A DNA stretch of 60,949 nt, counting the filler, from Sanchytrium tribonematis (Eukaryota), in assembly GCA_018985235.1 (NCBI GenBank). It is 6 parts of 6 records of this genome, joined end to end, with 100 filler letters (N's around TTAATTAATTAA, not from the genome) between each part and the next. Parts side by side here need not be neighbours in the genome. Positions count along the whole stretch, not along the records: positions 10,281 to 20,381 come from JADGIG010000306.1; positions 20,482 to 30,546 come from JADGIG010000307.1; 4 more parts are not named here. The stretch is one strand, 5' to 3'. The notes below the pieces were generated by a model that saw only the letters and a program-made list of their open reading frames with translations, was not told the origin of the DNA and ran no database searches. Every line of letters begins with the position of its first letter. Positions within the stretch are counted from its first letter, which is position 1. A program made the translations under genes and the position numbers. Of the stretch, positions 612-25,591 are shown piece after piece.

Positions 612-612
612 A

Positions 613-1092: not shown

Positions 1093-1622
1093 TGTTGGCA
1101 AACTAAACACTGCAGTGTGCGTAATTGAGACAAATGAGCATCTATTCATACTTAAAAGCTTCAACTTTTATCAAATAGACACATTAAACTGGGAATTTGT
1201 GTTGAATTTATTAGAAACTATAAAGGCAAAATATAGCGACGTAGATGCTTTTATTGTAGAGGTTAGCTAGCTTGTTGCAAAGGAAAATTAAATTACTCTT
1301 TATTATGCAACAATGTCATTCAATATTCGCTACCTTCTTATTTAAAAGGATCGAAGAAGCATGTTGTTGGTTGCAGTCCTTGTAGTCGCTATACATTTGG
1401 CAAGACCCTTTTACAACATTCTTGCAACCATAAAAAATACAATCGTGCTGCTGTTTATCAATAGACATATTTAAGAAACATTGGAGAGATAAAAGATTTC
1501 AATTTGGAGATAACGTATACAATGAATTGATACAATTGAATAAGATTGACGATGTGGCCGACTGTTATTTGATGGCATTATACTTTAATAAGTCAAACAA
1601 GTCATTTGTGGTTGTTGAATAA
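1091..1622 (+). pseudogene. RuvC-family Holliday junction resolvase pseudogene (poxvirus A22/NCLDV or Cce1/Ydc2-like)
   Basis: (D)VGKLNTAVCVIE ... DAFIVE ... QLNKIDDVADCYLMALYF: the DxGxxNxA / IVE / KxDDxAD catalytic motif order of A22/Ydc2-type resolvases. Stops and frameshifts are present. Confidence 0.65.
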
Positions 1623-1635
1623 ATATTTATTGCTT

Positions 1636-2775: not shown

Positions 2776-3003
2776 GTTTACAGGAGATCCCCTAAAAGAG
2801 AAAAAAAGCTGATATTGTTAAAAGAGCTGAAAATATGATTGGCCAAAAATATCAGCTGGATGCCATAATGTGAAATAATAAAGCATTGTTTCAATCAGCT
2901 GATAATATTTCTTTAATATATTGGTGACTCAATAAAAGGTATCCGCACTAAATACATGCAGCCCATTTGCAATTTAAATAAAGAATCATTGTTATTTCCC
3001 CAT

Positions 3004-4370: not shown

Positions 4371-4776
4371 TTGCAGTAGAATTGCTTAATTGCAGATTGT
4401 TTAAAAATGATTTGAAATATACAAGTTCATGAACCGTGTCTTGTTGGTGAAAGACTTAGCATATTATCAAAAGTAGGTGACAAAATGGCAATAAACTCAT
4501 TGTAAGTACCAAAATCTCCAAATCATTGTCTTCAGAATGAGAGCTGTGAAATTCAGTTAGTTGGCTTAATAAAACATTGATATTTATAATTCGACGGCCT
4601 CTTTTTGTGATAATTTTTTAAGTATAAATTCTAAAATGATAATTCTGACAAAACAGTTCAATAAGTAACCGATTAATTTCCAAAAAGTTAGATTATCCAG
4701 TGTAGGCACAACCACAGTTGCTTAGTTTAAAGTTATTTTTAGACTTCCATGCGAAATTATAATTCCAAACTATTTC

Positions 4777-6740
4777 TTGATAACTTCCGAGTTCGAAGCC
4801 CTACAAAATAATCCTTTATATGCAAATTATGTTTTTTCAATAGAAACTTTGGACTTTATTTACAAAATGAATCTAATCAGAAATTATTTGGAGGAAAATC
4901 GGGCCAAATTTTCTCGGAACCCATTGACCATAACATATCATGAGAAATTATTCAGAATGGAGTCAAAGAAGTAATTTTGCTTTTCAAATATTGAAGCTCA
5001 TTAGTTCCCAAATCTGTACCCCATAGGCAGAAATACACTTGAAAACAATTTTTCAGGAAGGGCAAAAGTGTTAAATCCCAATTATTCGATAAATACGGGC
5101 GTTTCGTGAATGTGATGATTGTATTTTTTTCATTTTGACTATTTAGAAACATATCGTATTACCTAACATTATGCAAAACAGTTGGGAAACAATACTTCCA
5201 ATTTGACTGTTAATGATGTTTTACAAGAATCTAAGAAAATCCAGCTCTTTTTTTCAGACAAGCTAAAATGGGTCTTTTTGCTATGGATAATACTTTCGGG
5301 TTCCGCATTTGTTTGTCACTTTTTCCTGCTCTGAGCAAACTTGGCCTGATTTAGAAAAATACTTGCTTAGGTTTGGGAAAAAACCAGATGGAAAGGAAAC
5401 TATTTTCACCGCTAATCCAGTATTATTAAATCATTACTGCTATGAAAGATTACAAAGAATGTTTAAATAATCCTTGAATTTGGTTACACGAACAAGTCAA
5501 TTTACCAATACTTTCAAAGATTTAAATTTCAAAAACGCGGAACTGTTCATATGCATATGTTGTTATGGTTGGAAAAATGTAGAGGTCCCCCATGATATTC
5601 CGAATGGTATACGGGCTGATATTCCATCTTTTAAAGAACACCAGGAAAAACATTTGTTTTACGGTATCATCAATACCACAGTTGTTCCAATTATTAATTA
5701 GGTACTTCTCGGAAATGTCGATTTAATTTTAAAGGAAAAATAATTAAAAAAACGATTTTTGATCCGAGAGTTGCAAGATATAGCATTAAAAGGCAAACTG
5801 AAGATGTAAATGTAAATGATTACCATGCAAAAGTGGAAAAGTAATATGGATATCAAACTGGTTTGTAATGACCTTATTTGTAATTATATAACAAAATATT
5901 GCACAAAAGCAGATCTTCAAGGACTGCTGGAAGTTAAAGAAAATGAAATTGCAAAATATATAAGTACCCGTGATTACTCTGTCTATGAGATTAGTCATTA
6001 TTTATCTAGAATGTGATTACAAAATTTTCAACTAAAGTTATTAAGATTTCTGTGAAAGTTTAATAGACAAGAGATATATAAAGCGACCTAAAGAATGCGA
6101 ACGTCTGAAGAAACAGAATTATGAAGAGATGGATAATTACTGCCAGATTATTACAGAAAATATGAAAAAGTTAACGCAAAGAAGATAAATCTGAAAAGTA
6201 TTGGAAGAATGATATTTTGAATTTTCAATGAAACGCTCTAAGAAAAATAATTCTCCCACTTCGTTAAAATCTAGAAAGATCGCTTATTTGAAAATTCAAA
6301 ATATCATATAATTAGTGGTGGAACAGGAAACTCTTTTTTGATGAAATAATCATTGAAGGGTCTAAAGCCTTAAATCTTAAAGCAGAAATAACAGCAAGTA
6401 CTGTGATAGCTGGATTTTTGATTGATGAAGCGACTGTACATTCAAAACTCAAGTTGCGATATCATGAAACAAAAGAAAAATGTGAGACTTTAGATTTTAA
6501 TGAAAAATCAAATCCTGTTCCTTTAAAAATGGACATGTTGCAATTATTTCAGTACATCAAATAATGCAGCGCCAAATGTTTCAAAACTGCAAAGTTCTAC
6601 TATCCGGAGATCCTAAACAGGTACCTCTTCTGTAAACGAAGATGTACTACACCTCGGATTTGGATAATTGCGAATGTTTCAAACTTTTCACAATTTAATA
6701 ATTTTTTGATTGTCTTTAACCCAATAAGGTAGCATGAAAA
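4777..6740 (+). mobile_element. Helitron Rep/Pif1-helicase remnant
   Basis: Rep-like FVTFSCSEQTWPDL, WKSNMDIKLV..NYITKYCTK..TRDYSVYEISHYL; Pif1-like eroded Walker A IISGGTGNSFLM, TASTVIAGFLIDEATVHSKL and LLSGDPKQVP. Heavily fragmented. Confidence 0.8.
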
Positions 6741-7899
6741 TGAAACTCTCCTCGTAATTCTCTTCAAAATTACTATTTATTTTGACTCCAAATTGATCTA
6801 ATAACCATGAGTGAGATGATCAAAACATAACAAACAATACGCTGTCAACAACAATATGGGAAGTGATTTGACACATAGTTGATGTTGATTCTTGATTGGT
6901 TCCCCCTTGTTTTAGAGTCGAAATATTATTGGGTCTCAGATCCTTTGTAATACTTGAGATTACATAAATAGAAGCTGATCCCCAGAAAACAACGAAGACA
7001 GACTATGAATAAAAACTTTATTATATCTCCCTCAAACACAAATAACTCATCCCCTCTGGGTGATGATGTTAACATACGCAACAGTTCGATCATTTTCCAC
7101 TTCGTAGTATGCACGCATACAATCCAAATAATATTTCTTTTTACAAAATGTGTGTATTTTTCGGGTTAATTTAAAATATTCAAAAAACACAATTGTAGAG
7201 CAGAAACAGATTCTGAACTAACTTATCTTGTTTACAATTTTTACAACATTGACCCGAATAGGAAAACAAGAATATTGGAATCGATGTTTTGCATTCTATC
7301 GTCGTTGGTAATCTGAGACACTTTTGGTAATCTCTACAACTTTATGTTGTAATTAGTCATGTGAAATCATCTTCTGATATAAAACTTCTTCGCGAGGAAC
7401 AATTTCCCGAAAGATATAATGAATCTCATTTGAAGTTCACGGATCGGGTTTTTAATATTTAATAATAAACTTTAAGAAATTGTTATATTGCGATGGGTCC
7501 GATCATATATGTTGTCTAGAGTTTGCAGTCGTTGACATAAGATATTTATTTGGAGAATGACCTCTTTATATGTATTTTAGTCCTTCTCTTGATTGGTCCC
7601 CTTATATATCACAAATCTTTGTAATATATAAAAGCCAATCATAAATCCCTCAAACTCGCCTCGTGAACCCCTTGGGTCTACAGGGTCAAAACTGCTCCCG
7701 TTGGAGTCTGACCCTAATATTGAGACCATATAAATATTAATAGTAATTTGTCAGAAGTTTACATTAAAAAAATTTTGAATATTTAAATGAAGATGATGTA
7801 TTATCACTGAAAAAATGCAACTCTAAATACAGTACAAAAAACCATTAGGAAAAGTAGATTTGCAAATTGCAAAATTTATATCTAATTTAAATTATTTAA

Positions 7900-8900
7900 G
7901 CATTTACTGATCAAAAACTACGCATTTATCTCGGGATCATTATTATTGCAAGTAATATTGAAAACCAAATTTCTGGGTATTACTGATACGGACAAAAGTG
8001 CTCCAAAAAACTGGCAAAAGTTTCGAAAATATTATCGAATGTCATGTAAATTTTGAGAATTACATTGTTTTTGAGTATTTTAGCGACTAGACAATCATGA
8101 CCAGAAAAAAAGTAGAGTTGATCAAATATTAGCTTGATACAATCAGGCCATTGTCTCAGTACTTGTATTAAGAAGAATTATGCCTTGTCATGTTCGCAAA
8201 TCTGGTATGATGGAACTAAAATATCCTCTCCCCATTTACCAATAAGTCTTGGAAAAATTGCGATTTTTGTGGTTAACTTTCACTGCCTGATTGCCGTTAC
8301 AACGATTGGGCTGCTCAAACAAACACAAGTTTAAATAAATCACAAATTAAAGAGATCCAATAGCTATCGAACTACAAATTTACTTGCCCCAATAAAGTTT
8401 CGCATTGAACATTTGTGCAATATTAGATGATTGGGCAATACAAAAGTTTTGTGCAAGGATTTTTGGATATTTAAACAGTAAAACAACAACTTTAAAAATG
8501 GTAAGCTTCATCACTATCAATGGCCGACTCACTGAAGATCCAATTGAAAAAATATTTAAAACGCTCAAGGAAGAAAAAAGAGTAAGGAGTATTGCAAGTA
8601 ACAATTACATTGGTAGAAAAAACCCGTTTTTTCAAGTAACGTTATGGAAACTACTTGTAGATCGTTTAAAAAAACTTTGAAAAAAGGATCATGCGTGGCA
8701 GTGAATAGACAATATTATCAAACAAAACATTTTTCATAAGATGGCCAAGAAAAAACTGCAAATTCTGTAATTTGCATTCAACTTGCCTTCCAGTTTGCGA
8801 ACATCCAGCCGAAATGACCGAAGAAAGTAAAGTGTTGGATGACAATGATTTGGAATTGTCATCAGACAAAAACAAATTGGAAGCCGAAGATTTAAGAAAT
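7900..8900 (+). mobile_element. Possible CACTA/Plavaka-like transposase remnant
   Basis: Weak frameshifted resemblance (IKFRIEHLCNIR*LG...RIFGYLNS...) to the KxHxxxHxxxxIRxFG..FESFN motif. Boundaries approximate. Confidence 0.25.
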
Positions 8901-10180
8901 AAGATGACAAAAACAAAAATAAATTAAAATTTTATCAAATTCATTTATTAAAACTTTTTTCTTAAATTTTTGTTTTCCAATTTCAACTAATAAAGTCGCA
9001 AGCAGCTTTTGTATGACAGACATTTTCCAAATACTCATATGTAAATTTCATTTGAATTTCCCAAAAACAACGCAATTTTACTCTGCTCCCTTAAGTAAAG
9101 TAAAGTTGTTCACATTTGCGACATAAAATTCTTGTTTTGTTTCCTCACGAGCTAAATATCATCAATCTGAGATTTCATTTTTTCCAACTCGTATTCAAAC
9201 TGGTGGCGCTCGTTTGATGACCAATTATCATCTGCAATTTTTCGTCTTTGTTTATCGAAAAGTAATGTAATGCCATGTTCCAAGTCGTTTCGTTGATCAC
9301 TTCGTTCAACTTTAAGACTTTCGTAATTTGACATATTTAATATTCTTCTTTTTGTCTGATGAGAGGTCATTGGTTTCTTTGCTGGTTGGGACATAATGCA
9401 AAATGTAGATTAGAAATTAAAAATATTTTTGACCAATTAACAACCGTTGAATTACCATTAGCCAATCAATTGTAAGTAAAACAAATTAAAAAATAACATT
9501 TTCCCTTTGAAATTAAAAATAAAGCGGATTGCTTGATTCGAAAGAGTCCCTTATCATCCATTGTGTGATTCGAAAAAGGCCCTTGGAAAATCTTTATCGT
9601 TTTAAAGAATGTTCGTGCAAAAGAAATAATAAATTATATTGATTTTATTTGTTCGAATGTGCCAAGTCCGACTGATAGGAAGAGGCTTTTGCTAGTTTTA
9701 CTGTCATTTTTCCCCTTTGTGCAACCTGAGATTTCACCCCTCAAAAAAAATGTTACTGGCAGTTGTTGACAGAATACCTACTTATTTCTGTTTAAAGTAG
9801 ATAATATAGTTCACTTATTAGATTTCCGACAGTCTTCATTCCCAAATTTCAAAGTCTCATCCAATTTGGCAACTTTAAAACAATTTTTAAATGTAGACGT
9901 TATAATAGTGGAAGAGCAACTACAGCCATCATTTGCAAGTCTAATATTAATATAAATGCCAACAATACGATATTTGGATCCATTTTTGGACATTCAATTG
10001 GATTAAAGATTTATTTATACGGAAGCGACCCAAATATCCGCTGCCAATTTACTTTAAAGTGTATAAATCATTGCTGTCGCATCCAACACGATAAATCAAA
10101 GCGTGATTGGATGTTATTTAAATCAAAATGATCTAATTAATCTAGTCAATTCAAAACAAGATCCAAGTCCTCAAATAAGG

Positions 10181-10280: not shown

Positions 10281-11216
10281 ACGATGAAAACAAGGGAAGT
10301 TTGTATAGGATTGCATTTGAGCAAGTTCCATCACTAGTTGCAAAAAGGCAAATCCAGTTAGAAAATGGGTTTGCATTCGTACCTGCTATGCAGGTTGTAG
10401 AATTTGCAAAAGAGCTTTTTAGAATGGAGTTGGTTAAAAATATTGAGGTTTCTCGAAAAGTTATCAATTGTTTTGAAGATGACCCAAGAATGAATCAAAT
10501 ATTAAAGATGTTTTCCAATTGTCACATTGAAAGCACTAGCAACACTGCGCTTTTAGATTTTTCGAGTGGATTGAATGTGCAGGTGGCTGAAGATATCAAA
10601 AAGTCAAAGCATTTGTTCCCACCTTGTATGGCAAGTTTGCAAGATCACCTTGAACAAAAGGCTCATCTTAAACATGGTGGAAGAATGCAGTACGGTTTGT
10701 TCTTAAAATCTCTGGGACTTCCTGTGCAGGAATCACTAAAATTTTGGAGGAAATCGTTTAAAAATATAACAGACGATGTATTTAACAAACAATATTCATA
10801 TAACATTAGGCACAATTACGGTCTCGAGGGAAAAAAAGCGGACTACAAGGCATACAAGTAATTTTACTTCACTTAGCTGCTCCAAAATTATAACAGCAAA
10901 TCAACCAGGAAGCTCAGATAACCATGGCTGTCCCTTTAAGCATTATGGAAAAGAGTCTCTTAGAAACGCTTTGACAGGCTCTTCATGGGGTATAAATCGC
11001 ATGGGAAGTTTTTTTGATCAAAAAAGAGTGGCTGAGGCTAGAGAAAAGGTTGGAGATATTGTCAAATTGGCGGCTGACCAACATCATCAAATAGCCTGCT
11101 CAAAATGGATGGAGTCTGTCATATATGTTCAGAGCGGTCAACATGTAGAAGTTGCTCCTGTTGATCATCCAAATGGGTATGCTTGTACAATTGCTGGAAT
11201 TGTAAATAACGATTAG
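10281..11216 (+). CDS. PRI2: DNA primase large subunit, 5'-partial; join(<10281..10857,10877..11216)
   Basis: FPPCM..HLKHGGRMQYGLFLKSLGL..YNIRHNYGLEGKKADY and CSKII..HGCPF..QIAC..HPN. Removing the 19-nt intron joins them as DYKAYNCSKII. Confidence 0.95.
10858..10876 (+). other. 19-nt spliceosomal intron GTAATTTTACTTCACTTAG
   Basis: GT..AG, contains the in-frame TAA. Its removal restores frame and the conserved DYxxYxCxKII spacing of primase. Confidence 0.88.
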
Positions 11217-11241
11217 TAAATTAAATATCATTAATTTATAT

Positions 11242-12622
11242 TTATTTGCCAATGTCTATGAGAGGATTCATAAATACCCCAATTCCTTTTCCTCTTTTCA
11301 AAAGTTCCTGTATTACAACTACACTCTGCCTATAGATTGACTCTAATTGAGGTATTCCCGGACGTCCAGTATGCACTAAATTATTTATAAATACTGAGAA
11401 TGGCACTATTAAGCTCATCTGCCAACACTCGCCTCTGTGAGTCGTCCATAAGATGCGAGACCGAAGATTTTCTGGGATCGTCATAGGCGACAAGAGAAAA
11501 AGTCTCCACTAATTTTTGCTGGAAATCTTCCTTTTGAATATTTCTATATATGTTTTGAAGTTCTTGGCCGTAGAGCAGGGTATTTTGGAGCATACTATCA
11601 AATTCTGATGCTTGACCATTTACTTTCAAATCTAACATGATTTTCACCATTTCAACAAATTTCCTACATTTTAATTTGAAAGTAATGTCCTCATTTTTTT
11701 CAAATAATCCTGGAAACATTCTATTTGTGGAATCAAATACACTATCTATATCACCGCTAGTAACCAATAGTCGAATTTGATGACGATTTTTAATGTCAGT
11801 CAAGGTATCATTATCGAATGCCAAATTTTGGGTCCTCCTAACGTTTTGAGAAAAAACGGACGCAGTTCCACTGTATCCGTGATGAATCAGATAAGAGAGA
11901 ATTAGTTCGTTTAAGACACTTTTTAGAAATGCATCGCCATATGATGAAGGAGGAGTTCCAGGGAGTTTTGAATTCATAATTTTATCCCAAGTTTTTGCTT
12001 TTTCTTCAAACATTAGGCTGTCGATGTCAAATTTGAAGGGCCTTTGGCCAAAATTTGCAGTGACTTTCTCACCAGGAGTACGAAGTCCTACGCAAGGATA
12101 TAGATTTTTGGGAAAATTTTCTTTTCCAAGATTGGGTAGCGGTAAATCTTTAAAAGCAACACCCAAATGAACCCCATTTTTGGTATAAAAGGCGTAATTA
12201 TCTATGAAATGAATTCCACAACCAACAACATCTCCGGTGGTAAATGTTGGTCCATAAGGTTTGCCATTCCCAGTACAAGCAAATATATTGCCGTCATCAC
12301 CATGTAATCCCCAGCTGTAATTCTCCCAGCCTGGAAGTCTGTTTAAGCTTACAGTCTCTGTACAAAATCCCACTCCTATATAACCATCTCGTCCTTTGCT
12401 TACAATTTCTAATTCATAGTAGTAAATGCCACTGCATAATGGAATTGGTAGATTCGAGCGAATGCTGGCAGCATCTGTGTCGCTTTTTCCAGTCCCAACA
12501 TAATTAACAACTCCATCTTGAACTTCTAGCAAAGAGCACTTATCTTTGGGATTCCATTGGGTAGGGAATTTAGTAGTCGGATCGATTAAGGAATTTTGTA
12601 AATAACTTGGCAACAGTTGCAT
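11242..12622 (-). CDS. RanBP9/10 (RanBPM, Gid1-like) SPRY-LisH-CTLH-CRA protein; join(11242..11375,11395..12622), 453 aa
   Basis: SPRY (YYYELEIVSKGRDGYIGVG..LPGWE..GLHGDDG), LisH (LILSYLIHHGY), CTLH, and CRA completed after splicing as LNSAILMHTGRPGIPQLESIYRQ. Confidence 0.93.
11376..11394 (-). other. 19-nt spliceosomal intron GTATTTATAAATAATTTAG
   Basis: GT..AG on the minus strand, contains the in-frame TAA. Splicing joins the two overlapping ORFs into a complete CRA domain. Confidence 0.88.
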
Positions 12623-12679
12623 TTTCCCAAAGATTGTTGAAACGTGGAGATTTATTGATTCAAATTAAATATCTTAAGT

Positions 12680-13741
12680 TCAATTCTGCTTTCTATTAAA
12701 TACCCATTCAATATATTCAGGCGTTTCTTGCTCGAGGTAATTAAGCCATTGATAAAAGCGGTCGTTGCCTGACAATTCTTCCTTTATCATTGATTCTAAA
12801 ATTGTTGTTTCGAAAAATTCGTCCATGTCTTTCAAGTATTTACCAAAATTTATCTGTGAACGCTCTTCAAATGCCGTGTTAGTTTCTTGCAAGAGATTTA
12901 ATTTTTTGTGATAAGTATCAAACTCGGGATGGTGCAACATTAGTCCGAGCGCTGGTGCTTTAGGAATACTGATTGTTGTATTCTCTTCGAATATCCAAGG
13001 GAAAAAGGTTTCTGCTTTCAAGTCATACCTTATAATAAACACTGCTAATGCCATCATCTTCCTTATTTGATGCAACATGAAAGATTGTCCATGAATTAAA
13101 ATTTTTAACCACTCTCCCTTTTCTGAACGCGAACCAGTAGGATATTTGAATACTGAAGGCTCTTCCACAGTTAAAGAAAGCATATGCCGTCGCGCTTTTG
13201 CGTCTGACCCTTTGACTTTGTTCGTAAAATTATGAAATTTGTGCGTTCCCTCGTAAAATTGAAGGATGTCTTTAAACTTTTGAATTATTTCTGATGTTAC
13301 CCTGTAAGAATCATTTGGTTCATCTGATTTACATAATATGTAAGTTGGCAGCCAATAAATATATCTTCTGCTACTGCAAAGATCTTTTGCGTGAAACCCT
13401 TTAGTAGTTCTGATGATGTCCCAAACTTTTATGGCTTCTGGCAGGGCAAGATTTAAGTTCACCTTGGCATCTTGAAGGTCCTCTGACTTCAAATCTAATT
13501 TGACATTTATAACTTGTCCTAGAGCATGGACTCCTTTGTCAGTTCTCGCGCATCTCATCAAATTGACTTTGCCACTGTCATTAGCATTGCATTCCGCAAT
13601 CAATCCTGCATTCGCTAGTGCTTTGAGCATTTCTTGTTCAATGGTTCTAACGCTAGTTTGAATTTGCATCCCGTAATAGTCTGTACCGCTGTATCCAAAT
13701 AAAATTGCAACTTTTATTTTTTTTGTTGATCTTTTCATCAT
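12680..13741 (-). CDS. PUS1: tRNA pseudouridine synthase, TruA/Pus1 family
   Basis: GYSGTDYYGMQ, RCARTDKGVHA, YEGTHKFHNFT, GQSFMLHQIRKM, IPKAPALGL. Confidence 0.92.
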   Translation of the reverse strand: MMKRSTKKIKVAILFGYSGTDYYGMQIQTSVRTIEQEMLKALANAGLIAECNANDSGKVNLMRCARTDKGVHALGQVINVKLDLKSEDLQDAKVNLNLALPEAIKVWDIIRTTKGFHAKDLCSSRRYIYWLPTYILCKSDEPNDSYRVTSEIIQKFKDILQFYEGTHKFHNFTNKVKGSDAKARRHMLSLTVEEPSVFKYPTGSRSEKGEWLKILIHGQSFMLHQIRKMMALAVFIIRYDLKAETFFPWIFEENTTISIPKAPALGLMLHHPEFDTYHKKLNLLQETNTAFEERSQINFGKYLKDMDEFFETTILESMIKEELSGNDRFYQWLNYLEQETPEYIEWVFNRKQN

Positions 13742-13872
13742 GTTTGTTTGATCCGCTTTTATGCATCAATTGCCCGAATCAAATCAAAATTATTTGTAGA
13801 CTTGAAATAATGTATTAAAAATTCAAGATTTAAGACCATATTTGAAACTAGTCTTGAAAAATTATATCAATC

Positions 13873-15624
13873 ATGGAAACAGTTAAAGTGATTGTAAGAG
13901 TCAGGCCTTTTAGCGTGAAAGAAAAGAGTGAAGGTCACAGTGATATTATTGGATCAAATGAAGTGGAAGCAAGTATTTCAATTACTGATCCAAAATTAAA
14001 TAACGCCCGACAATTTATATTCGACTCTGTGTTCGGTAGTGAGTCAAATCAAATGCAGGTGTATTCTTCTGCCAGACCGGTAATAATGAGTGTTCTAGAT
14101 GGTTATAATGGTACCATTTTCGCATACGGGCAAACTGGCACTGGTAAATCGTTCACAATGGAAGGCGACAGAAACAAGGCTGATCTAAGGGGCATTATAC
14201 CAAATGCATTCGAACACATATATTCTGAAATCCAAAAAAAAACAGGTGTCACTTGTTTGCTGCGTGTGTCATATTTGGAAATTTACAATGAAGAAATCAG
14301 GGATTTGTTGACAAACGCTGGCCATTTAGAAATCAAAGAGCACCCAAGTAAAGGTATTTATGTTAAGGATTTAAGTAGTGTGGTTGTCAAAAATCCTGAA
14401 GACATGTTTAAAGTTATGGAAGAGGGAAGCAAAAATAGGTCTGTTGGTGCCACGTTAATGAATGACAGATCCTCACGATCCCATTCAATTTTTCAGATAA
14501 TCATTGAGATGGAAGATAATGGAAAATTTAGGATTGGAAAACTAAGTCTAGTTGATTTGGCAGGTTCTGAACGACAAGAAAAAACCAAGGCCACTGGAGA
14601 TAGACTAAAAGAGGCTACAAAAATCAATTTATCGTTGACAACACTTGGTATTGTGATTAAACATTTAGTTGATGGAAAAAGTACACACGTTCCCTACAGA
14701 GATTCTAAGTTGACCAGACTTTTACAGGATAGTCTTGGTGGGAATTCTAAGACTTTAATGATTGCAACTTTGTCACCTGCAAGCTATAATTTTGAAGAAA
14801 GTATGTCTACATTAAGATATGCATCAAGAGCCAAGATGATTAAAAATAAGCCAAAAGTAAATGAGGATCCAAAAGACACATTACTTCGACAATTTGAGGA
14901 TGAATTGAAGCAACTAAAGAGTCAGCTCAATGAAATGGATGGACCGCCTATTGTGGAGAATTCTGGATCAAAAGACCCTTCGAAAAAGAAAAAAATAATC
15001 GATGATATTGAAAGAAAGAAAAAAGAACTTTGTGATCAAATTGAAGATCTACAAAATCAATTGGTCAAGTCGGACAATGTAGAAATTGATGCAAAAGAAC
15101 TAGAGAGATTAGAGCTTTCGAAAAAAGAAGAGCTGATTGAAGAAGAGAGAAGGAAAGAGAGAGAATTAAAGAAGCAAATACAGGCAAACTCTGACAAAAA
15201 ATTAGCAATGCAAACTAATTTCACCTCTTTAGAAGAAGAATGTCAGGTGCTAGTTAAAAAGTTGAAGCAATCCTACCATGAAGTCAAAAATTTGAAACTT
15301 GTGTTTAATGATTTGAAGGACGAATGTACAAGAGAAATTCAAGATTTGACAATCGAGTTAGAAAACCTTCAAAGAGATAATAGTGCCTGCGATAAAATAT
15401 GCTACGATTTATTTGATCCCAAGGATATCTCTTTCTTGAAAGACACTTATTCTGACTTTCTAATCGAAGATGAGAAACCGGACGAAGAGTTACAATTCGA
15501 ATATCCAACATATGAGAGTTTAATTGGAATAGGGCCAAACATAAAGACTCGTACTGTTGAGGAAAGCAAACCGGAAATTCCGATTGCAAAAGGTCTTATC
15601 AAATTTAGGAGACTATATGCTTAA
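13873..15624 (+). CDS. Kinesin-2 (KIF3/Osm-3-like) motor protein
   Basis: [53 protein letters not shown], neck [18 protein letters not shown] typical of kinesin-2, then a coiled-coil stalk. Confidence 0.92.
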
Positions 15625-15641
15625 AGAAATTCTCAAATACT

Positions 15642-16673
15642 CTAAGGTCTATAAACAAATTTTTTAAACTTAAATTCCAAGTGTAAGACCTTATTTTCAA
15701 AAACACAATTGAATCCTCTTTTGTAATTTGTTTCCCATTCTTTTTTCAAAATTCGGAATCTCAAGATTGCGTAAGGCTTTGAGCTTTTAAATACAACTAT
15801 TTCGTGATCCTTGCTTTCTGAGTCTGGGGTTTTCTCATAATCCGGTACACCATCTAAATTGGGATAAAAAATTGAAAACTTGTATCCCAATATTTGAGTA
15901 TCCGGCAGGTTTTCCGAAGTAAAATTAGCTTGATTATAAGAAGACCATTCAATCCCACACAGAACTCTACAAAAATATTTGGGCTTGATTCCATTATCCG
16001 GATCCATGTCATGAATCAACATTTCGCCTTGCGTCAGCGGCATTTTTGCAATTTGCTCAATGATCCAAGGATCTTGTTCCTCATTTTCAAGCTTCATAAT
16101 TTGTATTTTTTCAATTTGATTGAAAATCAAATCGTTTAATTCATCAACATGCTCTATACCGTTTCCTTTGGCAGACAAAGTTTTTTGCAACACCCTTCCG
16201 TATCTTTCATACCTCTGATGGATAAAATCTCGTAAAACAGTTTCTGAAATCTTGAAATAGATTCTGCTTAAAACAAACTCCCAATATTCATTGTCTATAA
16301 TTCCTTTGCCATTCATCCGAAGTTTCACGGTTTTTTTTACTAATTGTAGAGATTCCATAGAGAGCTTTGCAATTTTCAATTCCACTTCTTCGGTTATTTC
16401 TTTCTCTACCGAATATTCTTTTTCGCTGTAGTACTGCTCTAGAGAAGATATAATAGTTGCATAATAGGGAAACATTTTCTTATATTGCTCAACATCTGCC
16501 AAGTTTATTTTGGATTGCTGCAATTTTGGAAGAGGAATATATTTCAGTGATTTTACCAAACTGGCATCTTCCATATAGCAAATGTGTAAAAATATTATGT
16601 CAGATAAATCATGTCGCCTTTGCTTCAGTCGCAAAATGCTTCTACCAGCATATGCTTTTCGTAAATTTTCCAT
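15642..16673 (-). CDS. Cactin-like splicing factor (shortened, divergent)
   Basis: C-terminal KPKYFCRVLCGIEWSSYNQANF..GYKFSIFYPNL..PY..FRILKKEWE..KRGF..LEFKFKK.VYR matches the Cactin C-terminal domain. Confidence 0.85.
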   Translation of the reverse strand: MENLRKAYAGRSILRLKQRRHDLSDIIFLHICYMEDASLVKSLKYIPLPKLQQSKINLADVEQYKKMFPYYATIISSLEQYYSEKEYSVEKEITEEVELKIAKLSMESLQLVKKTVKLRMNGKGIIDNEYWEFVLSRIYFKISETVLRDFIHQRYERYGRVLQKTLSAKGNGIEHVDELNDLIFNQIEKIQIMKLENEEQDPWIIEQIAKMPLTQGEMLIHDMDPDNGIKPKYFCRVLCGIEWSSYNQANFTSENLPDTQILGYKFSIFYPNLDGVPDYEKTPDSESKDHEIVVFKSSKPYAILRFRILKKEWETNYKRGFNCVFENKVLHLEFKFKKFVYRP

Positions 16674-16709
16674 GACAAAAGGAGTTTAAAAATGAGTAGG
16701 CCTATTTAA

Positions 16710-19700
16710 ATGCCATTTGCAGTCTATCCTGAAGAAATAATTCAAGAAACCTGTGATTTTGATAATGGACATGTCTTTAATATCAAGATTCAGAATCTGG
16801 GATTTATTGCGGAGGAGTATTTGATTGAAAGTACAAATCAGGAATTTAAATTAGCAACAGCAGATGCTGCCAAAATACCTCCTGGACTAGTGTACAATAC
16901 TGTAATAGAATTCGACCCTTTTATTAAAACAAATTACTTTGGAAAAATCATCGTTAAATCAAAAAGCACGAATTGATTGGTTGAGATTCCTATCAAATGT
17001 TATAGGAAAAAAATCGATATTGAGATTCCAAATTCGTACAATGTTGGGATTGTACCTGTTTGCTTTGACTATTTTATTAATTTAAAATTTAAAAATAATG
17101 AATTGAAGCCAATTCATTTGACCATCATGGAACAAAGACGGCTTGGCATAGTGTCGCAACAGATTGAGTTAAAAGCTGAGGAAACTTTGGAGTGGAATGT
17201 CAAAGTCAACTTTAAGCACCATGGGCCAATATCGGAGGAGATTTGCTTTTTTGAAAATCAGTTGCAAACTCAATACTCTATTAATATATCAGGAGCTGCA
17301 GTTGTTTTGAATGTGGAATTGTCTTCGCAAATTATTTCTTTTCCTCTTTTGGACGCAAACAAAGAAGCTCAAATTTCTGTCTGGATAAGAAACAATTCTG
17401 ATTATGTTATGCAATATCATCTAGAAGAATACCAATCAGACAAGGCTGATTTTATCAGTGAACTAGAATCCAACACACATTCAAGACAATTAGGATCGTA
17501 CTACAGACCTTGGGATACTCGATACATCGGAAAGCCTGTTTCTAAGCAGCTTTTTCTTTCTCAAAGTGATGCGATCGTATATCCACATTCTTTTGCAAGA
17601 ATTGAGGCTGTTTTTGCACCCAAAAGATGTGGACTATTCAGAAGCAATTACTTTCTCCGATGCACGGGATGCGAGTTTCCGTTCCTCATTGAAATGAATG
17701 CGGAATCAGAGGGTCCTCGGCCTGAGCTAAATATTGAGAATTCTTTTGCTTTCATCGTCGGACAAGAAAACATGCTTCCATTGGTTGTGAAAAATTTAAG
17801 TGAAAAACATGGGCTTACATTTGAAGTGACAGCTACCTCAAATTACTTTTTGAAAGTTACAAATCGATTAAATGGGTATTTAAATCCGTCTGATGTCTCA
17901 AATTCAAAATTTTATATATCTAGCGATAAAGTGGGTAAAGCAGAAATCCTTGTTTTGTTGAAGATTGAGGAATTAGATATGACGCTCAAAAAGGTTGTCG
18001 CCATACATTTTAAGCTACCTGCTTTTAGTATTTCCATACCGGACAAAATTCAAAACACTTTTCTTGAGCCAATACAAATTCCAATTTATTACAATAGTAA
18101 GAACATACAATTTTGTGCTGAACTTTTGCCTCACAAGTCCAAGATATATTTGAATTCTTTAAAAGGCCAAGACACTCTTACAATTGAATCTGTCGAAGAT
18201 CTTGGTGTCACGCTACTGGCAAACTCGAAATGGGGTGTTTTGGATAAAAAATTTATCACTATTGAAAAGTTACTGTCTAAATCTGAATTTGTGAAAACTT
18301 TAGAATATGATTCGACTTCAATTACTAAAGAGCGATATTTAAATATAGATATCATAGCATGTAACAATTATTTAAACGAGGAAAAATTGACCATTCGGAT
18401 GGTTGAAGGTCCAGTAGAGGTGGATATCAAAAGCGAAGTGTTTTATTTTTCTTCCTCAATTCAGATTCCTGTTATAATTAAGCCAATTTCTGGTGGTAAT
18501 TACATAGTTGAAATTCAAAATAGTTCTGGAGATATAATGTCAATTAAAGGTGACTTTTACTTTCCTAAAGTTGATATTATTTGCAAACACGATGACCTCA
18601 CCACATTGACAATGTCCCTATTTGAGTTTTATGGAGATTGTGACGAGATTCTCGACTGTAAGGCAGAAATCTATGTCGATAATTTCCTTGTATATAAAAG
18701 TAGCCTTCAGACTAAAGAATTGATGAAATTTTCATTTGTTTTCAAAGAATGTAGACCCCATCTGTTTCGCATTTCATATTTATGGAGAAACGAAGTAATA
18801 GGTGAATATAATGGTGTAATCCCAGTTTATGACGAACCAATACAAATTATTGGAAGCCTTGATTTTCAAAGAGTTCCGATATCTTGTAATCCCTCTAAGC
18901 TCATGTATTTTAAAAATCATGGAGAAACTTCAAGAGAAATCATTTTGAAATGCAACAATGTTCGCGTAAATTTTGAGAAAAAAAGGTTCAACCTCGAACC
19001 AGATCAATCAATCGAGGTTGCAGTTTCAATACAGGATATCGGCAAAATAGAAGAAAATGCTGTGGTATTTATAAAAAACCGAGTTTTTGCTAAGATCCCT
19101 ATTAAAGCCATAGTTTCTAATCCAAAAATCAAAATTTTATCTGATTTGAGCCTGCCAGTGCAAGCCAATTGCTTAAACTATTATAATTTATGCTTTCAAA
19201 ATATTTTTGACGAAGAGCTGCTAATTCAAATTGAATGTCAAAAAGCTTTGGAGGGGCCAAAATGGCTTAAAATAAAACCAAGCGAAAAATTGGCCTCAAC
19301 ATTAACATTTAAAGGCTCAGAATATGCAGCAGATGCAATTCAACTACTAAAAATATCCATTTCTTTTAAAAACTGCAAAATCAAGCAATTTGTCACAGTA
19401 TTGAATTCAAACTTCCCATCAATTCCATTGCTGGTGTCTCAAAATAATTTAGCTTCCGGATTGAAGCAATTGACATTTAATTCTGGCAGTATTTTAAGAA
19501 GTATAAATAATAGCTTTCCACGATCCTTTAAAGAGACCACATTCACAGATTCTCAGAGTGTATTCACGGTTATAGATCCTCAAGGCTTTAAAACCCGCTT
19601 TTCATTGAAGCAACGTCCATATTTTGAAATCTCATCTGTAAAGCAAATTGTCAAGACTATTAGATGCCCAAATTTATGTTTTGATTTATCCTTGCCTCTT

Positions 19701-20096
19701 CGACTAGATGAAGCCAGTATTTTATGCTATAAAAATGAAAACACAAATTTTAAATACTTAAATTCTAATCAACTAAAATCAAACATTTTAGTTTCTATTT
19801 TAAATCCCAAGAAAATTCTTAAAGGTTTTTTTCAATATATACTTAACGGTTACTTGGGATCTATTCCTTATAAGTTTACAATTGAACCATTGATTTTGAC
19901 GATTAATTCAACTAGAATTGAATATTTTGATGTGGAAGATGTTGAAATTGAGTGCAATTCTAAAGTTGTAAATTCAAGCAATTTCCCACTTAAGTTTGAA
20001 TATCAAGGTGCATTTGTTGATGAAATTTTAGAAGCTAAAGCCTCATTTGTGATCGGAAACAAGAATTTTCAAATTAAACAAGAAAGTGTGAAATAA
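16710..20096 (+). CDS. Hydin/DLEC1-like tandem ASH/PapD-Ig domain axonemal protein with an in-frame TGA at 16974-16976 (possible pseudogene)
   Basis: FAVYPEEII, KIPPGL..IEFDP, EIPIKCY, ISGAAVVLNVEL..IRNNSD and IVYPHSFARIEAVFAP..TGCEFPF..EGP resemble the Hydin N-terminal repeats. The two ORFs are in the same frame. Confidence 0.6.
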
Positions 20097-20119
20097 ATTT
20101 TGTAAAACTTTGTCACATA

Positions 20120-20381
20120 ATGATGTTATCAAATTTAATGAAAAGTCAAAAGAGGTTCATAACCTCTCGTTCAAACTCAAAGCGATATGCCTCACAGCCT
20201 AGTAAGCCACAATTCAATTTAAAGTGTACTGAATTGAACGATAGTGGTAAAAAGAGTAATATGCAATCCAATAAGTTGGATCTTTGTGCGAGTTTTGGAC
20301 TTCAACCAAGAGACTTGAGAAAAGTGGACTCAAGAATTAAGACTTTTCCAAGTCTTGCCGTGAGAGAAGAAGCTATCATTA
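20120..20381 (+). CDS. Mitochondrial Mg2+ transporter Mrs2/Lpe10 family, 3'-partial
   Basis: Basic presequence followed by KLDLCASFGLQPRDLRKVD..PSLAVREEAII. Confidence 0.85.
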
Positions 20382-20481
20382 NNNNNNNNNNNNNNNNNNN
20401 NNNNNNNNNNNNNNNNNNNNNNNNNTTAATTAATTAANNNNNNNNNNNNNNNNNNNNNNNNNNNNNNNNNNNNNNNNNNNN
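20382..20481. other. Artificial contig spacer
   Basis: N44-TTAATTAATTAA-N44. Confidence 0.99.
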
Positions 20482-21070
20482 AAGGGATGTCTAATCCGAA
20501 AATTTGATATTTTTTTAAATTTCGGACCTGGACATTGGGATAAAGATTTAACAGTGTGACATGATTTTCACTCAATTCGTCATAATGATAGATTTGTATA
20601 GCTTCTTGCCATCCAATTTGAATTAGTAATCGAACATTCGCCACTACCAGGTCAAAATTGTGTAGATCACACAAAATTATGACACCACGTAAGCCAGTAA
20701 CATAATTTAATTGATCTAATGACTCGAGTGATTCTTTTAGAAACTTTCGTCCTTGATAAATGATCTCTGATGGGTACTTCCAAACTTTGGGATCTGTCCA
20801 TCTCCAGGATTGTGGGTGTGGGTTGACTTGCCCTACGCTAAGTGTTCGAGAGCATTTAGTTGTCATATTGAATAAAAATTTTAATTCATTTGTCATTTCT
20901 ACGTCGATTTTTAATTTTGATGACAAATTCGGGAGCAAGATTTCTTGCTTTCCGGTTCTTTTGCTAATATTCGGAATGGATATTGTCTCGGTATTAATTC
21001 TGTATTCCGGTACTTGAAGATAAATTAATAGTATTGTGCAAACAATTATACGTTTGACTACAATTTGCAT
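20482..21070 (-). CDS. Golgi alpha-mannosyltransferase-like (GT71, MNN1/MNN2 family), 3'-partial
   Basis: Type II signal anchor, stem region, then RGVIILC..VRLLIQIG..IQIYHYDELS. Confidence 0.6.
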
Positions 21071-21093
21071 GTTTTGAAATTAGAGAATGTTTT

Positions 21094-22554
21094 TTATTTC
21101 ATGATTTCGGACATGCGTTTTTCATAGGCGGTTGTATCTAACTTTTTAGCCTCCTTTAAATAGACTGGCTTTATCAGACCGCATCCTATGCACCAGTCCA
21201 TAAAATTTATCTTTTTAAGATCGAAGATGTATTTGTAGACTATATTTTTGTAGCCCTCGTACAAGCTTATGACACTGGCTTTCGCTAGACTATTGAGTTT
21301 CGCATCAAACTCGTTTAACTTTACAAGATAAGAGTACTCTCTTGGTATTTCCAGCGAGAGTTTTTCAAATTGTATTTGCTTCTGCCCCATAGTATACTCG
21401 AATGCCTCTTGAGAGGGATCTAAACAAATGATGCACTTTCCTTTCTTATCAAATCTAGCAGTTCTGCCACCTCTGTGAAAGATGTTGGAAATGTCGCTAC
21501 TAGGTGGATCTAGTTGAATCACACAATCTACAGAGTCAAAATCGATTCCTCTTGATGTCAAATCAGTGCTAAATAGAACTTGCTTTTTCTCTGAATATTT
21601 GATAAATTGATTGTAAACTTGTTCTCTTTTATGAGACTTCATCTTTCCATGTATACCAACAAAATTAGTATCGGCAGTCGCAGAATTTGAAGTCCATTTT
21701 GTAAATAATTTTGGTAATTGCTTCTTTTTAGTGGAGTTATCAGGATCCAAGCCTGAAAGTAATTTAAACAATCTCAAAAGATAATTAACTCCGTCAGAAG
21801 AATTGACAAATACGACAATTCTGTGGGATTTCTCAAAATTTAGAAAGTTAATTAAAAACATAATTCTATCCCACGCGTTAATATAACATAGTTGGTACTT
21901 CAATTGAGATGGAGACGAAGCATTTTGGGACAATTTGGACGACTTGATTCGCACAATGTACGGATTCCTCATGGCTAACTTTTTAACAAGAGTTTGCATA
22001 AAAAAGTCATCCTTACACAAGGTTGCGGAAAAAAGTGCAGTCATCCTCTGTTTTGGAAACAGTTTAATTAAATTAGTAAATGAGACATTGAAAGTGCTGT
22101 CTACAAATCTATCCGCTTCGTCACAGATCAAAATCTCGACAATTCTAGTATTTAATTTTTTCGAAATTATAGCACTAATCAGCCGTTTGGGCGTAGCTAC
22201 AAGAATGTATTTCGTCGTTTTAGGATAAATGGGCTCTGAACCGCTAGTTATGAGCCCGCATTCAACTTCCAGCGATTTGCAATATTCTTCCAAAACACCA
22301 AAAATTTGTTTTGCTAATTCTCTAGTAGGAGCTATAATTACAGCACCGAAATGATCATCTGCTTGTACGGCAAAATGTAAGCAGGGTAAGAGAAACGCAT
22401 TTGTCTTTCCACTCCCAGTGCACGCCTCAACCAAAACATCTTTCTTGCTAATAAATTGGGGTATAGCATGTTTTTGTACCATGCTAGGTTTGTCGTGAAA
22501 TGTCTTTATCATCTTGACAACAATTGGATTCAACTTTAAATCTTCCCACTCCAT
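21094..22554 (-). CDS. DEAD-box RNA helicase, Spb4/DDX55-like
   Basis: Likely start MEWEDLKLN; DVLVEACTGSGKT, APTRELA, DEAD, SAT, RGID, HRGGRTAR. Confidence 0.85.
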   Translation of the reverse strand: MEWEDLKLNPIVVKMIKTFHDKPSMVQKHAIPQFISKKDVLVEACTGSGKTNAFLLPCLHFAVQADDHFGAVIIAPTRELAKQIFGVLEEYCKSLEVECGLITSGSEPIYPKTTKYILVATPKRLISAIISKKLNTRIVEILICDEADRFVDSTFNVSFTNLIKLFPKQRMTALFSATLCKDDFFMQTLVKKLAMRNPYIVRIKSSKLSQNASSPSQLKYQLCYINAWDRIMFLINFLNFEKSHRIVVFVNSSDGVNYLLRLFKLLSGLDPDNSTKKKQLPKLFTKWTSNSATADTNFVGIHGKMKSHKREQVYNQFIKYSEKKQVLFSTDLTSRGIDFDSVDCVIQLDPPSSDISNIFHRGGRTARFDKKGKCIICLDPSQEAFEYTMGQKQIQFEKLSLEIPREYSYLVKLNEFDAKLNSLAKASVISLYEGYKNIVYKYIFDLKKINFMDWCIGCGLIKPVYLKEAKKLDTTAYEKRMSEIMK

Positions 22555-22598
22555 TTGTTTACTCCTAAAATTTGTGGTGTTGAATACTGAAACCGAAA

Positions 22599-22895
22599 AT
22601 GAGAAAGCTTGTTCAAATGTCTTGTCTAGATGAGAATTGTGCAAGTCTGTCCATAATACATCACTACCATCTTATCCATGACCTGTATGAATCGCTAAGA
22701 GATTACGTGTCCAAAGAGTTGCAAGATATGTTGTACTCCATTTGTGATAGTCCATCTTTTTTGCATTCTAGCAAACTAAAATTGAGACTTATTGACAAAA
22801 AGATTCTTGGAGAACTCAACTCTGTTGATTTGGATGATGTTGAGCTCATGGACTTGGTCAAAAGCTTGTATGTACATTTATGTAATATTTTTTAA
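22599..22895 (+). CDS. Hypothetical small protein
   Basis: 98-aa ORF filling the space between two genes, with AATAAA at the stop. No motif recognised. Confidence 0.45.
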   Translation: MRKLVQMSCLDENCASLSIIHHYHLIHDLYESLRDYVSKELQDMLYSICDSPSFLHSSKLKLRLIDKKILGELNSVDLDDVELMDLVKSLYVHLCNIF

Positions 22896-22908
22896 TAAAT
22901 ATTTATTC

Positions 22909-25591
22909 TTACAAATTACGTTGTCTCTTCAAGTCTTCTAAGGATTTGGTTGCACTCAAGTTTGCTGGTTTCTTTAGCTCGTCCATTGAACCTTTTTTAA
23001 TCATTTGTTTCTTTCTTAAATCTTCGTTAGATCTAACGCTATGGAAGGAATTAATAAGTCCCAAGCCTGGTCCCTGTTTAGCAAACTTGGCTCGAATATT
23101 TGCCATACACAAATTCATTAATATTTTAAATTTACGAACCATCTCTTCACTGCTAAATACTATGGTCAAAGTAATATTATTATCTAATTGAATTTTAATC
23201 TTGTTTTTACGTTCTAATTCCTCAATAAGCACAGGCTTTTGCAAAAAATCCATTTTGTAGACAATACCTTCACTCTTAAGTTGATATTCATTATTTGAAG
23301 AGACCTTCTTGATGGTATGCAATGAAAAATACTTATCAGTACCATTAAAAAGTAAAAAGAATCTTTTCCAGACATTAATTTTCAATTTCTTGTCCAAAAC
23401 CTCAACGTAATCGTAAAAGATAGCCGTATCATTTGTCTGATTTGAGTTTAATTTCACCATACTTCCAAGAGTACTTCGGTCAATCATATCATGTTGAGAT
23501 CCAACTTTGATTGACCTAGATTTCTCAGAGGATTTGGGTTTCTGACTTTGCTCTTTTTGGGGCTTTTCAATATCATGGCGTAGTAATAGCAAAAGTCCAT
23601 TTGTACCCATGAACATCAAAATACTTAAAATGATTTTTCTCGTTGTATGATTAAATATACTTGCAGTTGAAAAGCAAGCTGCTAAAATTAAAAACCCGAG
23701 AGAATTATAAAGAATAATATTTGCGTAACGACTTTGTTTGGTGAAAATTTTGTTTGATCTCAAAATGTATGAAAGAAATACCGCGTAGGCGTAAATGATT
23801 ACATTAAATGCAAATAATAACCAGAAAAATCCAGAATCATACTTGCTTTCTGAGCAAATAAACTCGTAAGCGTTTGTTCCACCTTCGGTAAATATATGAT
23901 CTTCGTGATAATTGGCCAACGAAACCCATAAGATGGTCAGAGTACCATTTAATATCATGAGAAGATAAGGTATAAACTTTAAGCTTTCGTCAGATCTCCC
24001 TTTAAATTCTAATCTAATTCCGCTTAAAGTTTTGAAGAGTTTCCACAATTTCATTGTGATTAAAACCCCACAGATATTAATTGCTGTTACTGAAAAAAAT
24101 CTCACTGATCCACAGCTAACCTATGTTAAAATATATTACCTGATTAGGATTTAAAACAAACAAAAGAGATGCAATATTTCCGAACAACAAGGACGCAGTA
24201 GCTAAACCTTTTGAGAACGACCATAATTTTGTTTTTGAGATTTGTACAGAATTAATAGTCACAACTAATATAATCATAATACTACAAGCAACAATCATAA
24301 AGTAAAAGAAGAAAGGGTATCTCGCTACCACTGTGTAAGCATTTGCAGAAAAGTCGATTTCGTATCCCACATTTCCATCTGGACTCCAATTATATTTAAA
24401 CCCAGTCATTTTCAAAATTTTGTTTGTGGCTGCACTGTATGAAAATGCTTTGTTTCTTGATCCGCTCTCGGTTTTTTGCATAATCAAGAAGTCACTTATG
24501 ACATCGTGATCATATGTAAAATATGCGTGACCGGCTGGACCTTGCACTTCAAAATGGGAGAGTAAATCAGTGTTATTAAGAAACCAAGTAGATCCAAGCT
24601 TTTGAAAAGTATCGACCTTATTTTTGGATTTTGCAGCTGTGATGAGACTAGAGAACAAATCCAAGCATGATAAATAAAACGGAGCATATGACAAATCATC
24701 CAGTTCGTATTTTGAATTTGAAATTGTATGTAAGTAATCATTCATGACCTTGAAGTCATCCGTACTAACATCCGCAGCTTGAACAGAGTATAAAACGTTT
24801 GCATCCCCAGCGTATCCACCAAAAGTATCAGCTCCTAGCCATACATAATCTTTATCGAACATGATTTTTTGACTAGGAGTGCTTGTGTCTACCATTTTCT
24901 GAAATTCCGAAGGTTCTCCCAGAAACACAACAACAGTACTCTCGCTGTCTTTAATTTGGCTTAAATACAAAGAAAAATCCTTTTGATAGACTTCATATTG
25001 CAAATCTGCAACAATCGTTACTTTGTCAGCATCGTCAGCTTGCTGGTTGCTAAGATTTAATTCACTAAGAAAAGCACTTCGCACACCCACAGCAAAAGCG
25101 TCCAAGTTATTCATTAAATTGATTCTCTTCCACTTCATCTGTACAACAAATTGAGCCAAGACTTTTCCCTGAATATTATCGTTTGGAATAGTTCTGATAA
25201 AGTAAGGAAATTCAGTTTTGTTTTCCAACGCCTGATTTGTCGCAGATCCAGAGCAAACTGGAATTTTGTTCAATGCAAAAACAGGCATAACGTTTTTTGT
25301 TTGACCACTCGAATATGGACCAACAACAATATCACATTGATCTATTGCTCGAAAAGCTTCGTCAACGTTCAAAAGTGTATTACCAGTCGCGCCAGTATCC
25401 AAAAAATGATTAAATGTCAAATTAGAAAACGGAAGCTTTCCGCTTGATTTAAGGTCATTCGCGTGTTTTTCGGTCAGCTTATGCATATAATTAAAGTAAG
25501 CTTGAGGGGAATCGTTGTCCAAAGCAATATTTCTAAACATTGAACATATCCTCAGGCTTTCAGCAGACACCAAATGAAAAACCCAGAACAT
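22909..25591 (-). CDS. Class C (GABA-B/mGluR-like) GPCR with Venus flytrap domain, 7TM and PH-like tail; join(22909..24120,24140..25591), 887 aa
   Basis: VVGPYSSG..IPVCSGSATNQALENKTEFPYFIRTIPND (ANF receptor domain), seven hydrophobic segments, and a TM3 Cys (VSCGSVRF..MKLWK) restored by the 19-nt intron. Confidence 0.88.
24121..24139 (-). other. 19-nt spliceosomal intron GTAATATATTTTAACATAG
   Basis: CAG|GTAAT...TTAACATAG|GTT. Splicing gives LNPNQ-VSCGSVRFF and joins TM2 to TM3 in frame. Confidence 0.9.

Follow-up and report, generated by a model that had tools for sequence, protein, structure and literature searches.

Candidate spliceosomal introns of about 19 nucleotides in the sanchytrid fungus Sanchytrium tribonematis

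Three interrupted genes and their 19-nt inserts

Sanchytrids are parasites of algae with genomes of 10–11 Mb and ~35% G+C that are sister to Blastocladiomycota (PMC8371127). The window analyzed here is a whole stretch of 60,949 nucleotides, filler included, from Sanchytrium tribonematis (assembly GCA_018985235.1). It consists of six contigs of ~10 kb each with N-linkers between them and a G+C content of 30–36%, and contigs 2–6 carry 46 open reading frames (ORFs) that occupy 46,650 of 50,317 bases. The sanchytrid DNA under study is this window only, and the intron sample consists of three introns and six informative ORF tails of relatives. Three genes on contigs 2 and 3, encoding the DNA primase large subunit PRI2, RanBPM, and a class C-type GPCR, feature an insert of 19 nt each that breaks the reading frame. 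An initial annotation described the inserts as spliceosomal introns of a fixed 19-nt length with the branch point fused to the 3' splice site. That these fungal inserts are spliceosomal introns is very likely; each has a branch-like A at a constant 5 nt from the 3' end and lacks a pyrimidine tract. A single fixed length, however, is not supported.

The three 19-mers were confirmed in position and strand, and all of them have GT...AG ends. The annotated motif was also found in 3/3 inserts, which start with GTAWT and end with T-(A/C)-A-Y-W-TAG, placing an A at −6 and a T at −8. The first six bases are GTAATT, GTATTT, and GTAATA. The inner G+C of the inserts is 0.20, 0.00, and 0.07, compared to 0.36, 0.45, and 0.34 for the flanks. 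Each 19-mer connects two Pfam-matching or homologous gene halves that lie in different frames. The GT and YAG ends of U2-type introns are present in all three DNA introns, and at 19 nt each (19–21 nt deduced in relatives) they fall within the ≤21 nt of tiny introns.

PRI2 is an essential replication protein with conserved cysteines. The upstream exon (10283..10857, + strand), whose 5' end is cut at the contig edge, matches PF04104 positions 2–186 with an E-value of 2.7e-46, and the downstream exon with the stop codon (10877..11216) matches positions 180–265 with an E-value of 1.1e-14. The GT-AG intron between them (10858..10876, phase 2) is located just 5' of the conserved cysteine motif and has its branch-like A at 10871. 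The spacer from RHxYGxxG to CxxII is 9 residues long in 108/108 pattern-matched homologues (of 120); it is 9 residues in the window protein after removal of 19 nt and 15 after removal of one base.

The RanBPM gene (SPRY-LisH-CTLH) lies on the − strand. The upstream exon (11395..12622) was identified by domain match and homologues, and the downstream exon with the stop codon (11242..11375) aligns without gaps to the C-terminal helix of full-length homologues. The GT-AG intron (11376..11394, phase 1) contains an in-frame stop and has its branch-like A at 11381. The stretch from NxxIL to PxLE is 17 residues in 88/116 homologues and in two more after correction of the pattern start, with 26 homologues unmatched, and removal of the 19 nt results in 17 residues. 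For both PRI2 and RanBPM, the restoration of register was determined by homologue spacing and by HMM score. All open deletions of 1–60 nt located ≤45 nt from each break were scored against homologue profiles, and 19 nt was the best length in both scans, so that other junction lengths are disfavored. For PRI2 the best score is 247.2 vs. 240.5 for the runner-up (931 open deletions), and the GT..AG placement scores 245.5 vs. 235.8 for a 1-nt deletion. The corresponding values for RanBPM are 133.0 vs. 128.4 (1160 open deletions) and 132.2 vs. 123.2. The GT..AG placements in the two genes are ≤2 bits below the best placement.

The GPCR gene is also on the − strand. Its upstream exon (24140..25591; P0242) features an ANF ligand-binding domain (PF01094, E 3.6e-21) and the first helices, and the downstream exon (22909..24120) features 7tm_3 from profile position 71 followed by a C-terminal tail. 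The GT-AG intron (24121..24139, phase 0) has its branch-like A at 24126; four relatives break at this site and the ORF calls of two relatives start inside the downstream exon. Pfam and PDB searches did not fix the junction register, which is supported by the frame and by the shifted-frame alignment of relatives. The GPCR tail (22909–23500) is long and conserved, and the tail of one relative has a faint PH-domain match (E 0.038).

The case for the three inserts is based on position and homology and not on motif counts. The window-wide counts by length reveal no surplus at 19 nt (19 GTA..TAG 19-mers observed vs. 15.4 expected), and the count of the narrow motif, 3 observed vs. 0.47 expected, is circular because the motif was derived from the same three introns. 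At 14,979 random coding positions, a GT..AG 19-mer occurs within 4 nt in 2.2% of cases and one that includes the 3' motif in 0.10%. Among 28 sense-strand motif matches of 15–26 nt on contigs 2–6, judged by eye, none was accepted besides the three, and each of the others lies 5' of a gene or within an ORF that is not interrupted. A scan for GT..AG segments that join frames returned many chance candidates, and homologous halves were joined by only the three. The 46 ORFs contain no convincing stop-free 18-, 21-, or 24-mers and no apparent longer introns.

The initial annotation stated that all three frame-breaking interruptions in conserved genes on contigs 2–3 are repaired by removing 19 nt. An additional in-frame TGA on these contigs, at 16974–16976 (+), has no small-intron explanation. 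It lies between ORFs of 88 and 1039 residues that resemble one gene, with no Pfam match, and may reflect either gene decay or an allele with a nonsense mutation.

The same sites in relatives

Three close relatives match the RanBPM upstream exon with 81–85% identity, and the other 116 matches listed are at ≤50%. The Amoeboradix gromovi protein (EukProt P0003), one of the three, is 84–85% identical to the window RanBPM, which is ≤50% identical to the matches listed outside the clade. A quick tree of 30 selected rows groups the window protein with the three close relatives with a support of 100, and this sanchytrid group is nested in a clade containing Blastocladiomycota with a support of 98. The window accordingly belongs to a sanchytrid that differs from the A. 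gromovi record. Metagenome contigs searched with RanBPM returned two distant loci (44–45% identity) and no sanchytrid DNA, and viral contigs returned one distant SPRY match.

The sanchytrid ORFs were predicted from contigs with TransDecoder and introns were not modelled (PMC8371127). Public ORF calls that ignore introns read on into the intron until they meet a stop, and the tails of the predicted proteins thereby record the intron. After the common AIL, the RanBPM tail reads SI in A. gromovi and SK and SCFILM in the other two relatives, and the PRI2 relative P0122 ends in KYSFY; P0122 and the RanBPM relative P0002 are probably encoded on the same 64,615-nt contig. All of the 8 unspliced tails are compatible with GT at the intron position of the window, and the tails of the four GPCR relatives all start with Val, which has a chance of 0.048 in each. 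In P0243 and P0245 the shifted-frame run-on aligns to exon 2 of the window only at an intron length of 19 nt (scores of 48 vs. 5 and 46 vs. 0), and at this length the whole T-N-A-Y-N-TAG motif fits. A full motif fit was found at 20 nt for P0002 and at 21 nt for P0246, and in each the protein's own stop codon is the final TAG. In simulated AT-rich DNA, a full motif fit is obtained by chance for 0.3–1.8% of tails and a three-base fit for 5–9%. The T-N-A-Y box at −8 to −5 is thus found in 3/3 window introns and fits in full in four tails of relatives. A search for hidden in-frame introns in the insertions of relatives resulted in two weak fits. One is a 6–7-residue insertion near residue 390 of P0245 that could be an in-frame intron of 18 nt carrying this motif; it is weak, as another, chance-like fit appeared in the same test.

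The relatives bear on whether the length is strictly 19 nt, as initially proposed, with the spliceosome measuring every intron of the species from its 5' end. The three window introns are all 19 nt, the introns of two GPCR relatives are 19 nt by register, and the 46 ORFs yielded no convincing stop-free introns of other lengths. However, the tails at the same sites fit 20 nt (P0002 and weakly P0244) or 21 nt (P0246 and weakly P0122); at 19 nt, the motif is matched by none of the four. Additionally, Stentor (15/16 nt), Mikrocytos (16/17 nt), and nucleomorph introns (18–21 nt) each span a narrow range and not one length. A strict length is therefore unlikely, the tails of P0002 and P0246 argue at the protein level against one length across the group, and three introns are too few for a claim within the species. 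Most simply, the tails point to a class of 19–21 nt in which the 3' cassette is fixed and the 5' part varies slightly. The fixed element is the distance from the putative branch to AG; the length is narrow and probably not single.

The tails also argue against a bypass of the inserts by ribosomal frameshifting, hopping, or RNA editing instead of splicing. In favor of a bypass, each insert is AT-rich and displaces the frame by a single base. However, the register demands a skip of exactly six codons plus one base, and in relatives the skipped length at these sites would have to be 19, 20, and 21 nt. The recurring GT, A(−6), and TAG, and folding that does not exceed that of shuffled sequences (z 0.09–0.29), make this explanation highly improbable.

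Probable spliceosomal introns and alternative explanations

The three inserts are, with high confidence, major-class (U2-type) spliceosomal introns that belong to a narrow class of ~19–21 nt in an intron-poor sanchytrid genome, an assignment made from sequence. Minor (U12-type) introns were considered and rejected: these feature the extended 5' consensus RTATCCTT, which differs from GTAATT, GTATTT, and GTAATA.

The initial annotation named 1-nt indel errors in the assembly as a possible source of the frame breaks, and these were examined with unitigs from the sequencing run X1. The unitigs are gap-free at the RanBPM site (depth 151) and the GPCR site (depth 88), and the PRI2 intron lies inside a depth-90 unitig with zero differences, which the next unitig overlaps. 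X1 may be the window's own source, and the unitigs therefore test the assembly and not independent occurrence. Errors of assembly or amplification, or pseudogenes, have some grounds in that the window contains other breaks without an intron explanation (16974 and 39695 are in-frame stops, and a kinase gene shifts frame near 49300) and that the published sanchytrid genomes were produced by whole-genome amplification (PMC8371127). However, a 1-nt fix leaves six surplus residues that are absent in homologues, the unitigs are gap-free at depths of 88–151, the proteins of eight relatives break at the same sites, and the downstream exons are still conserved. Errors or pseudogenes are thus an extremely improbable source of the inserts.

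The in-frame TAA at 39695–39697 (−) lies between an ORF with an MLKL-type N-terminal domain and a kinase-Sel1 ORF, and no small intron that keeps the frame fits there. The kinase gene at 48862–49877 (−), part of a tandem kinase cluster, has a frame change between the catalytic loop and a DFG-like motif, where sequence is seemingly missing. An intron near 49300 was rejected, as the 17-nt candidate would delete the catalytic loop, and the break looks like a deletion.

Excision without a spliceosome, by an Ire1- or tRNA-endonuclease-type mechanism, or elimination at the DNA level was also considered. Excision of the Ire1 or tRNA-endonuclease type in fungi acts on introns of ~20 nt, with conserved hairpins or a bulge-helix-bulge at both junctions. 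The size of the inserts is near that of a hac1-type intron, but the GT-AG ends are canonical, no stable hairpins are formed (folding z 0.09, 0.29, and 0.22), and no Rfam match was found in the window. DNA elimination is opposed by X1, in which no contig with the 19 nt deleted was found. Both routes are exceedingly unlikely.

The intron density of contigs 2–6, three introns per 46.6 kb of ORF, is ~0.06 introns/kb. This value is a minimum, since introns adjacent to the start codon and in-frame introns that lack a stop are easily missed. Reported densities per kb are 1.30 for Allomyces, 2.53 for Rozella, and a mean of 0.01 for microsporidia (PMC8476143). The introns could be genuine relics that are spliced poorly and retained by most transcripts, a situation resembling that in microsporidia. 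The short introns of E. cuniculi are spliced at <20% (PMC6349667), and the sanchytrid genome is likewise intron-poor and from a parasite lineage. This proposal concerns the efficiency of splicing and not the identity of the introns, and the PRI2 intron lies upstream of the conserved cysteines of an essential protein, so useful splicing is needed there. Poor splicing is conceivable but on the whole improbable.

Several points weigh against the assignment to spliceosomal introns. Splicing and the branch A at −6 are inferred from DNA and protein sequence. The introns known as DNA number three, lengths of 20 and 21 nt were deduced from the ends of proteins, and detection by frame breaks is biased against stop-free 18- and 21-mers. 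No full-length homologue of the window GPCR was found for a direct register test; its relatives are 47–48% identical, their sanchytrid identity is deduced, and some may be paralogues. P0244 (20 nt) and P0122 (21 nt) fit three motif bases only, with a chance of 5–9%, and the tails of P0003 and P0004 end too early for any length. The unitig data come from a single DNA sequencing run, X1, that may be the window's own source, and the PRI2 unitig extends only 18 bases to the right of the intron. A second allele in X1 departs at 10683 and rejoins at 10865, and differs somewhere in 10684–10864, up to intron position 7; since it rejoins at 10865, the last 12 bases of the PRI2 intron are kept in that allele. 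Allele bubbles are also present elsewhere on contigs 2 and 3.

Splicing machinery, a possible mechanism, and other short introns

A miniaturised spliceosome, as the initial annotation suggested, is not supported by the annotation of A. gromovi (PMC8371127, supplementary file 4). It includes PRP8, SNRNP40, BBP/SF1, SF3B1, U1-70K, PRP22, PRP17, DBR1, and both U2AF subunits (U2AF35 and a K12837, U2AF65-type, protein), and the lineage thus encodes a major spliceosome. The window itself encodes the splicing factor Cactin at 15645–16685 (−), and a Rfam search found no snRNA in the window. In the A. gromovi annotation, which covers about half of the proteins, no rows were found for PRP18, PRP28, U1C, or SLU7, the last searched under its name as well as two ids; the search relied on KEGG/KOG ids and long annotation cells were cut, and the list is therefore a hint only. 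The Cactin ORF is ≤347 residues vs. 758 in human and keeps the C-terminal domain and a weak mid region. Supplementary file 4 (PMC8371127) lists DBR1 and U1-70K in two rows each, and SNU114 also appears twice, on a single contig of the second species. Such double rows may represent genes split by unmodelled introns.

In the proposed mechanism, the last eight intron bases function together as a single, fused signal. The T-N-A-Y box would be recognized by pairing with U2, and the A and the AG would be read by BBP/SF1 and U2AF35, leaving no space for a pyrimidine tract. Attack of the A at −6 on the 5' G would produce a lariat with a loop of 14 nt and a tail of 5 nt, and the 3' splice site would be the first AG past the branch. 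The 3' distance would serve as a fixed ruler, while the loop from the 5' end to the branch could vary by ~2 nt over the clade (14–16). In yeast, the second step can proceed without Slu7, Prp18, and Prp22 if the branch is <7 nt from the 3' site (PMC3392075). Slu7 and Prp18 may be dispensable here in the same way, with a branch to 3' end distance of <7 nt, which fits their non-annotation in A. gromovi. The intron size probably marks a lower limit: in a compact parasite genome, deletion pressure would shrink introns until the catalytic core allows no further loss. A broader proposal is that these are the shortest spliceosomal introns of opisthokonts, that all sanchytrid introns are 19–21 nt with the A hard-wired at −6, and that Slu7, Prp18, Prp28, and U1C were shed because a 19-base cassette is read in one step without scanning for the 3' splice site; this is possible but doubtful.

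Tiny introns are known from several lineages. Stentor coeruleus has 8,806 introns of 15–16 nt with the branch A at position 10/15 or 11/16 (PMC9505925). Similar to the sanchytrid introns, these are AU-rich, start with GUA, have the branch A at −6 and a 5-nt tail, and are served by a mostly conserved spliceosome. Stentor is a ciliate, however, and the sanchytrid introns are 3–5 nt longer, rare, fungal, and feature a clearer T-N-A-Y box. The introns of chlorarachniophyte nucleomorphs are 18–21 nt and those of Mikrocytos mackini are 16–17 nt (PMC10245619). The nucleomorph introns share the size range, the narrow distribution, and the reduced genome, but they are found in intron-rich relic nuclei. 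Mikrocytos mackini is a parasite with a similarly narrow distribution and has 17–19 spliceosomal proteins, whereas the A. gromovi annotation retains many core factors.

A fixed spacing between the branch point and AG was reported for the intron-poor Yarrowia lipolytica, Trichomonas vaginalis, and Giardia lamblia (PMC2483917). In all three the branch box is anchored beside AG without a pyrimidine tract, as in the sanchytrid introns, and in Yarrowia two bases between the branch box and AG likewise place the A at −6. In contrast, Yarrowia introns are long and have a strong ACTAAC consensus, whereas the sanchytrid introns total 19 nt and show a weaker consensus. Fusion of the branch point to AG is thus already known from Yarrowia, Trichomonas, Giardia, and Stentor.

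Closer to the sanchytrids, E. cuniculi introns are ~25 nt and Rozella introns ~30 nt (PMC6349667). These holomycotan parasites also have very short GT-AG introns, but the sanchytrid introns are smaller and lie deep in the coding sequence rather than at the 5' end. Since sanchytrids are a separate lineage, sister to Blastocladiomycota, intron shrinkage would be independent of that in microsporidia and Rozella. In animals, the lowest median intron size reported for myxobolids and Dicyema is 22 bp (PMC13644364). These opisthokont parasites share the GTa start and the retention of U2AF, but their A-rich stretch drifts from AG as introns lengthen, while the sanchytrid A appears fixed at −6 and the introns are shorter than that median. 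The kind of intron is known and the lineage is new, which would make it an independent fungal case.

If the assignment is correct, the sanchytrid introns are the smallest size found reported for Fungi, compared to ~25 nt in microsporidia and ~30 nt in Rozella, and are below the lowest animal median of 22 bp. The few groups whose introns approach the smallest size that a spliceosome can physically handle would then include a fungal lineage, and this would be another independent arrival at an A at −6 without a pyrimidine tract. Close fungal homologues and yeast genetics would allow sanchytrids to be used for testing which spliceosomal parts change as introns shrink. No paper on sanchytrid introns was found in the open literature as covered by listings and abstract openings, and a TPPP paper on sanchytrids does not discuss introns. 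The main text of the genome paper contains the word "intron" once, in a reference (PMC8371127); its main supplement, outside this coverage, could mention introns. As the sanchytrid proteomes are plain ORFs from DNA, intron-bearing genes such as RanBPM, PRI2, and the GPCR are truncated or split in public databases, and this can distort counts of gene loss.

The remainder of the window reflects a compact gene arrangement. PRI2 and RanBPM are convergent, with stop codons 25 bases apart (11217–11241), and many other intergenic gaps are <100 bases. Contig 1 (1–10180) is gene-poor and features short broken ORFs that by eye resemble decayed mobile elements; none of the six ORFs tested has a Pfam match. 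An ORF at 33788–35314 (−) features a Tle1-like phospholipase domain, and two tandem LRR genes at 51660–55076 (+) have near-identical leaders.

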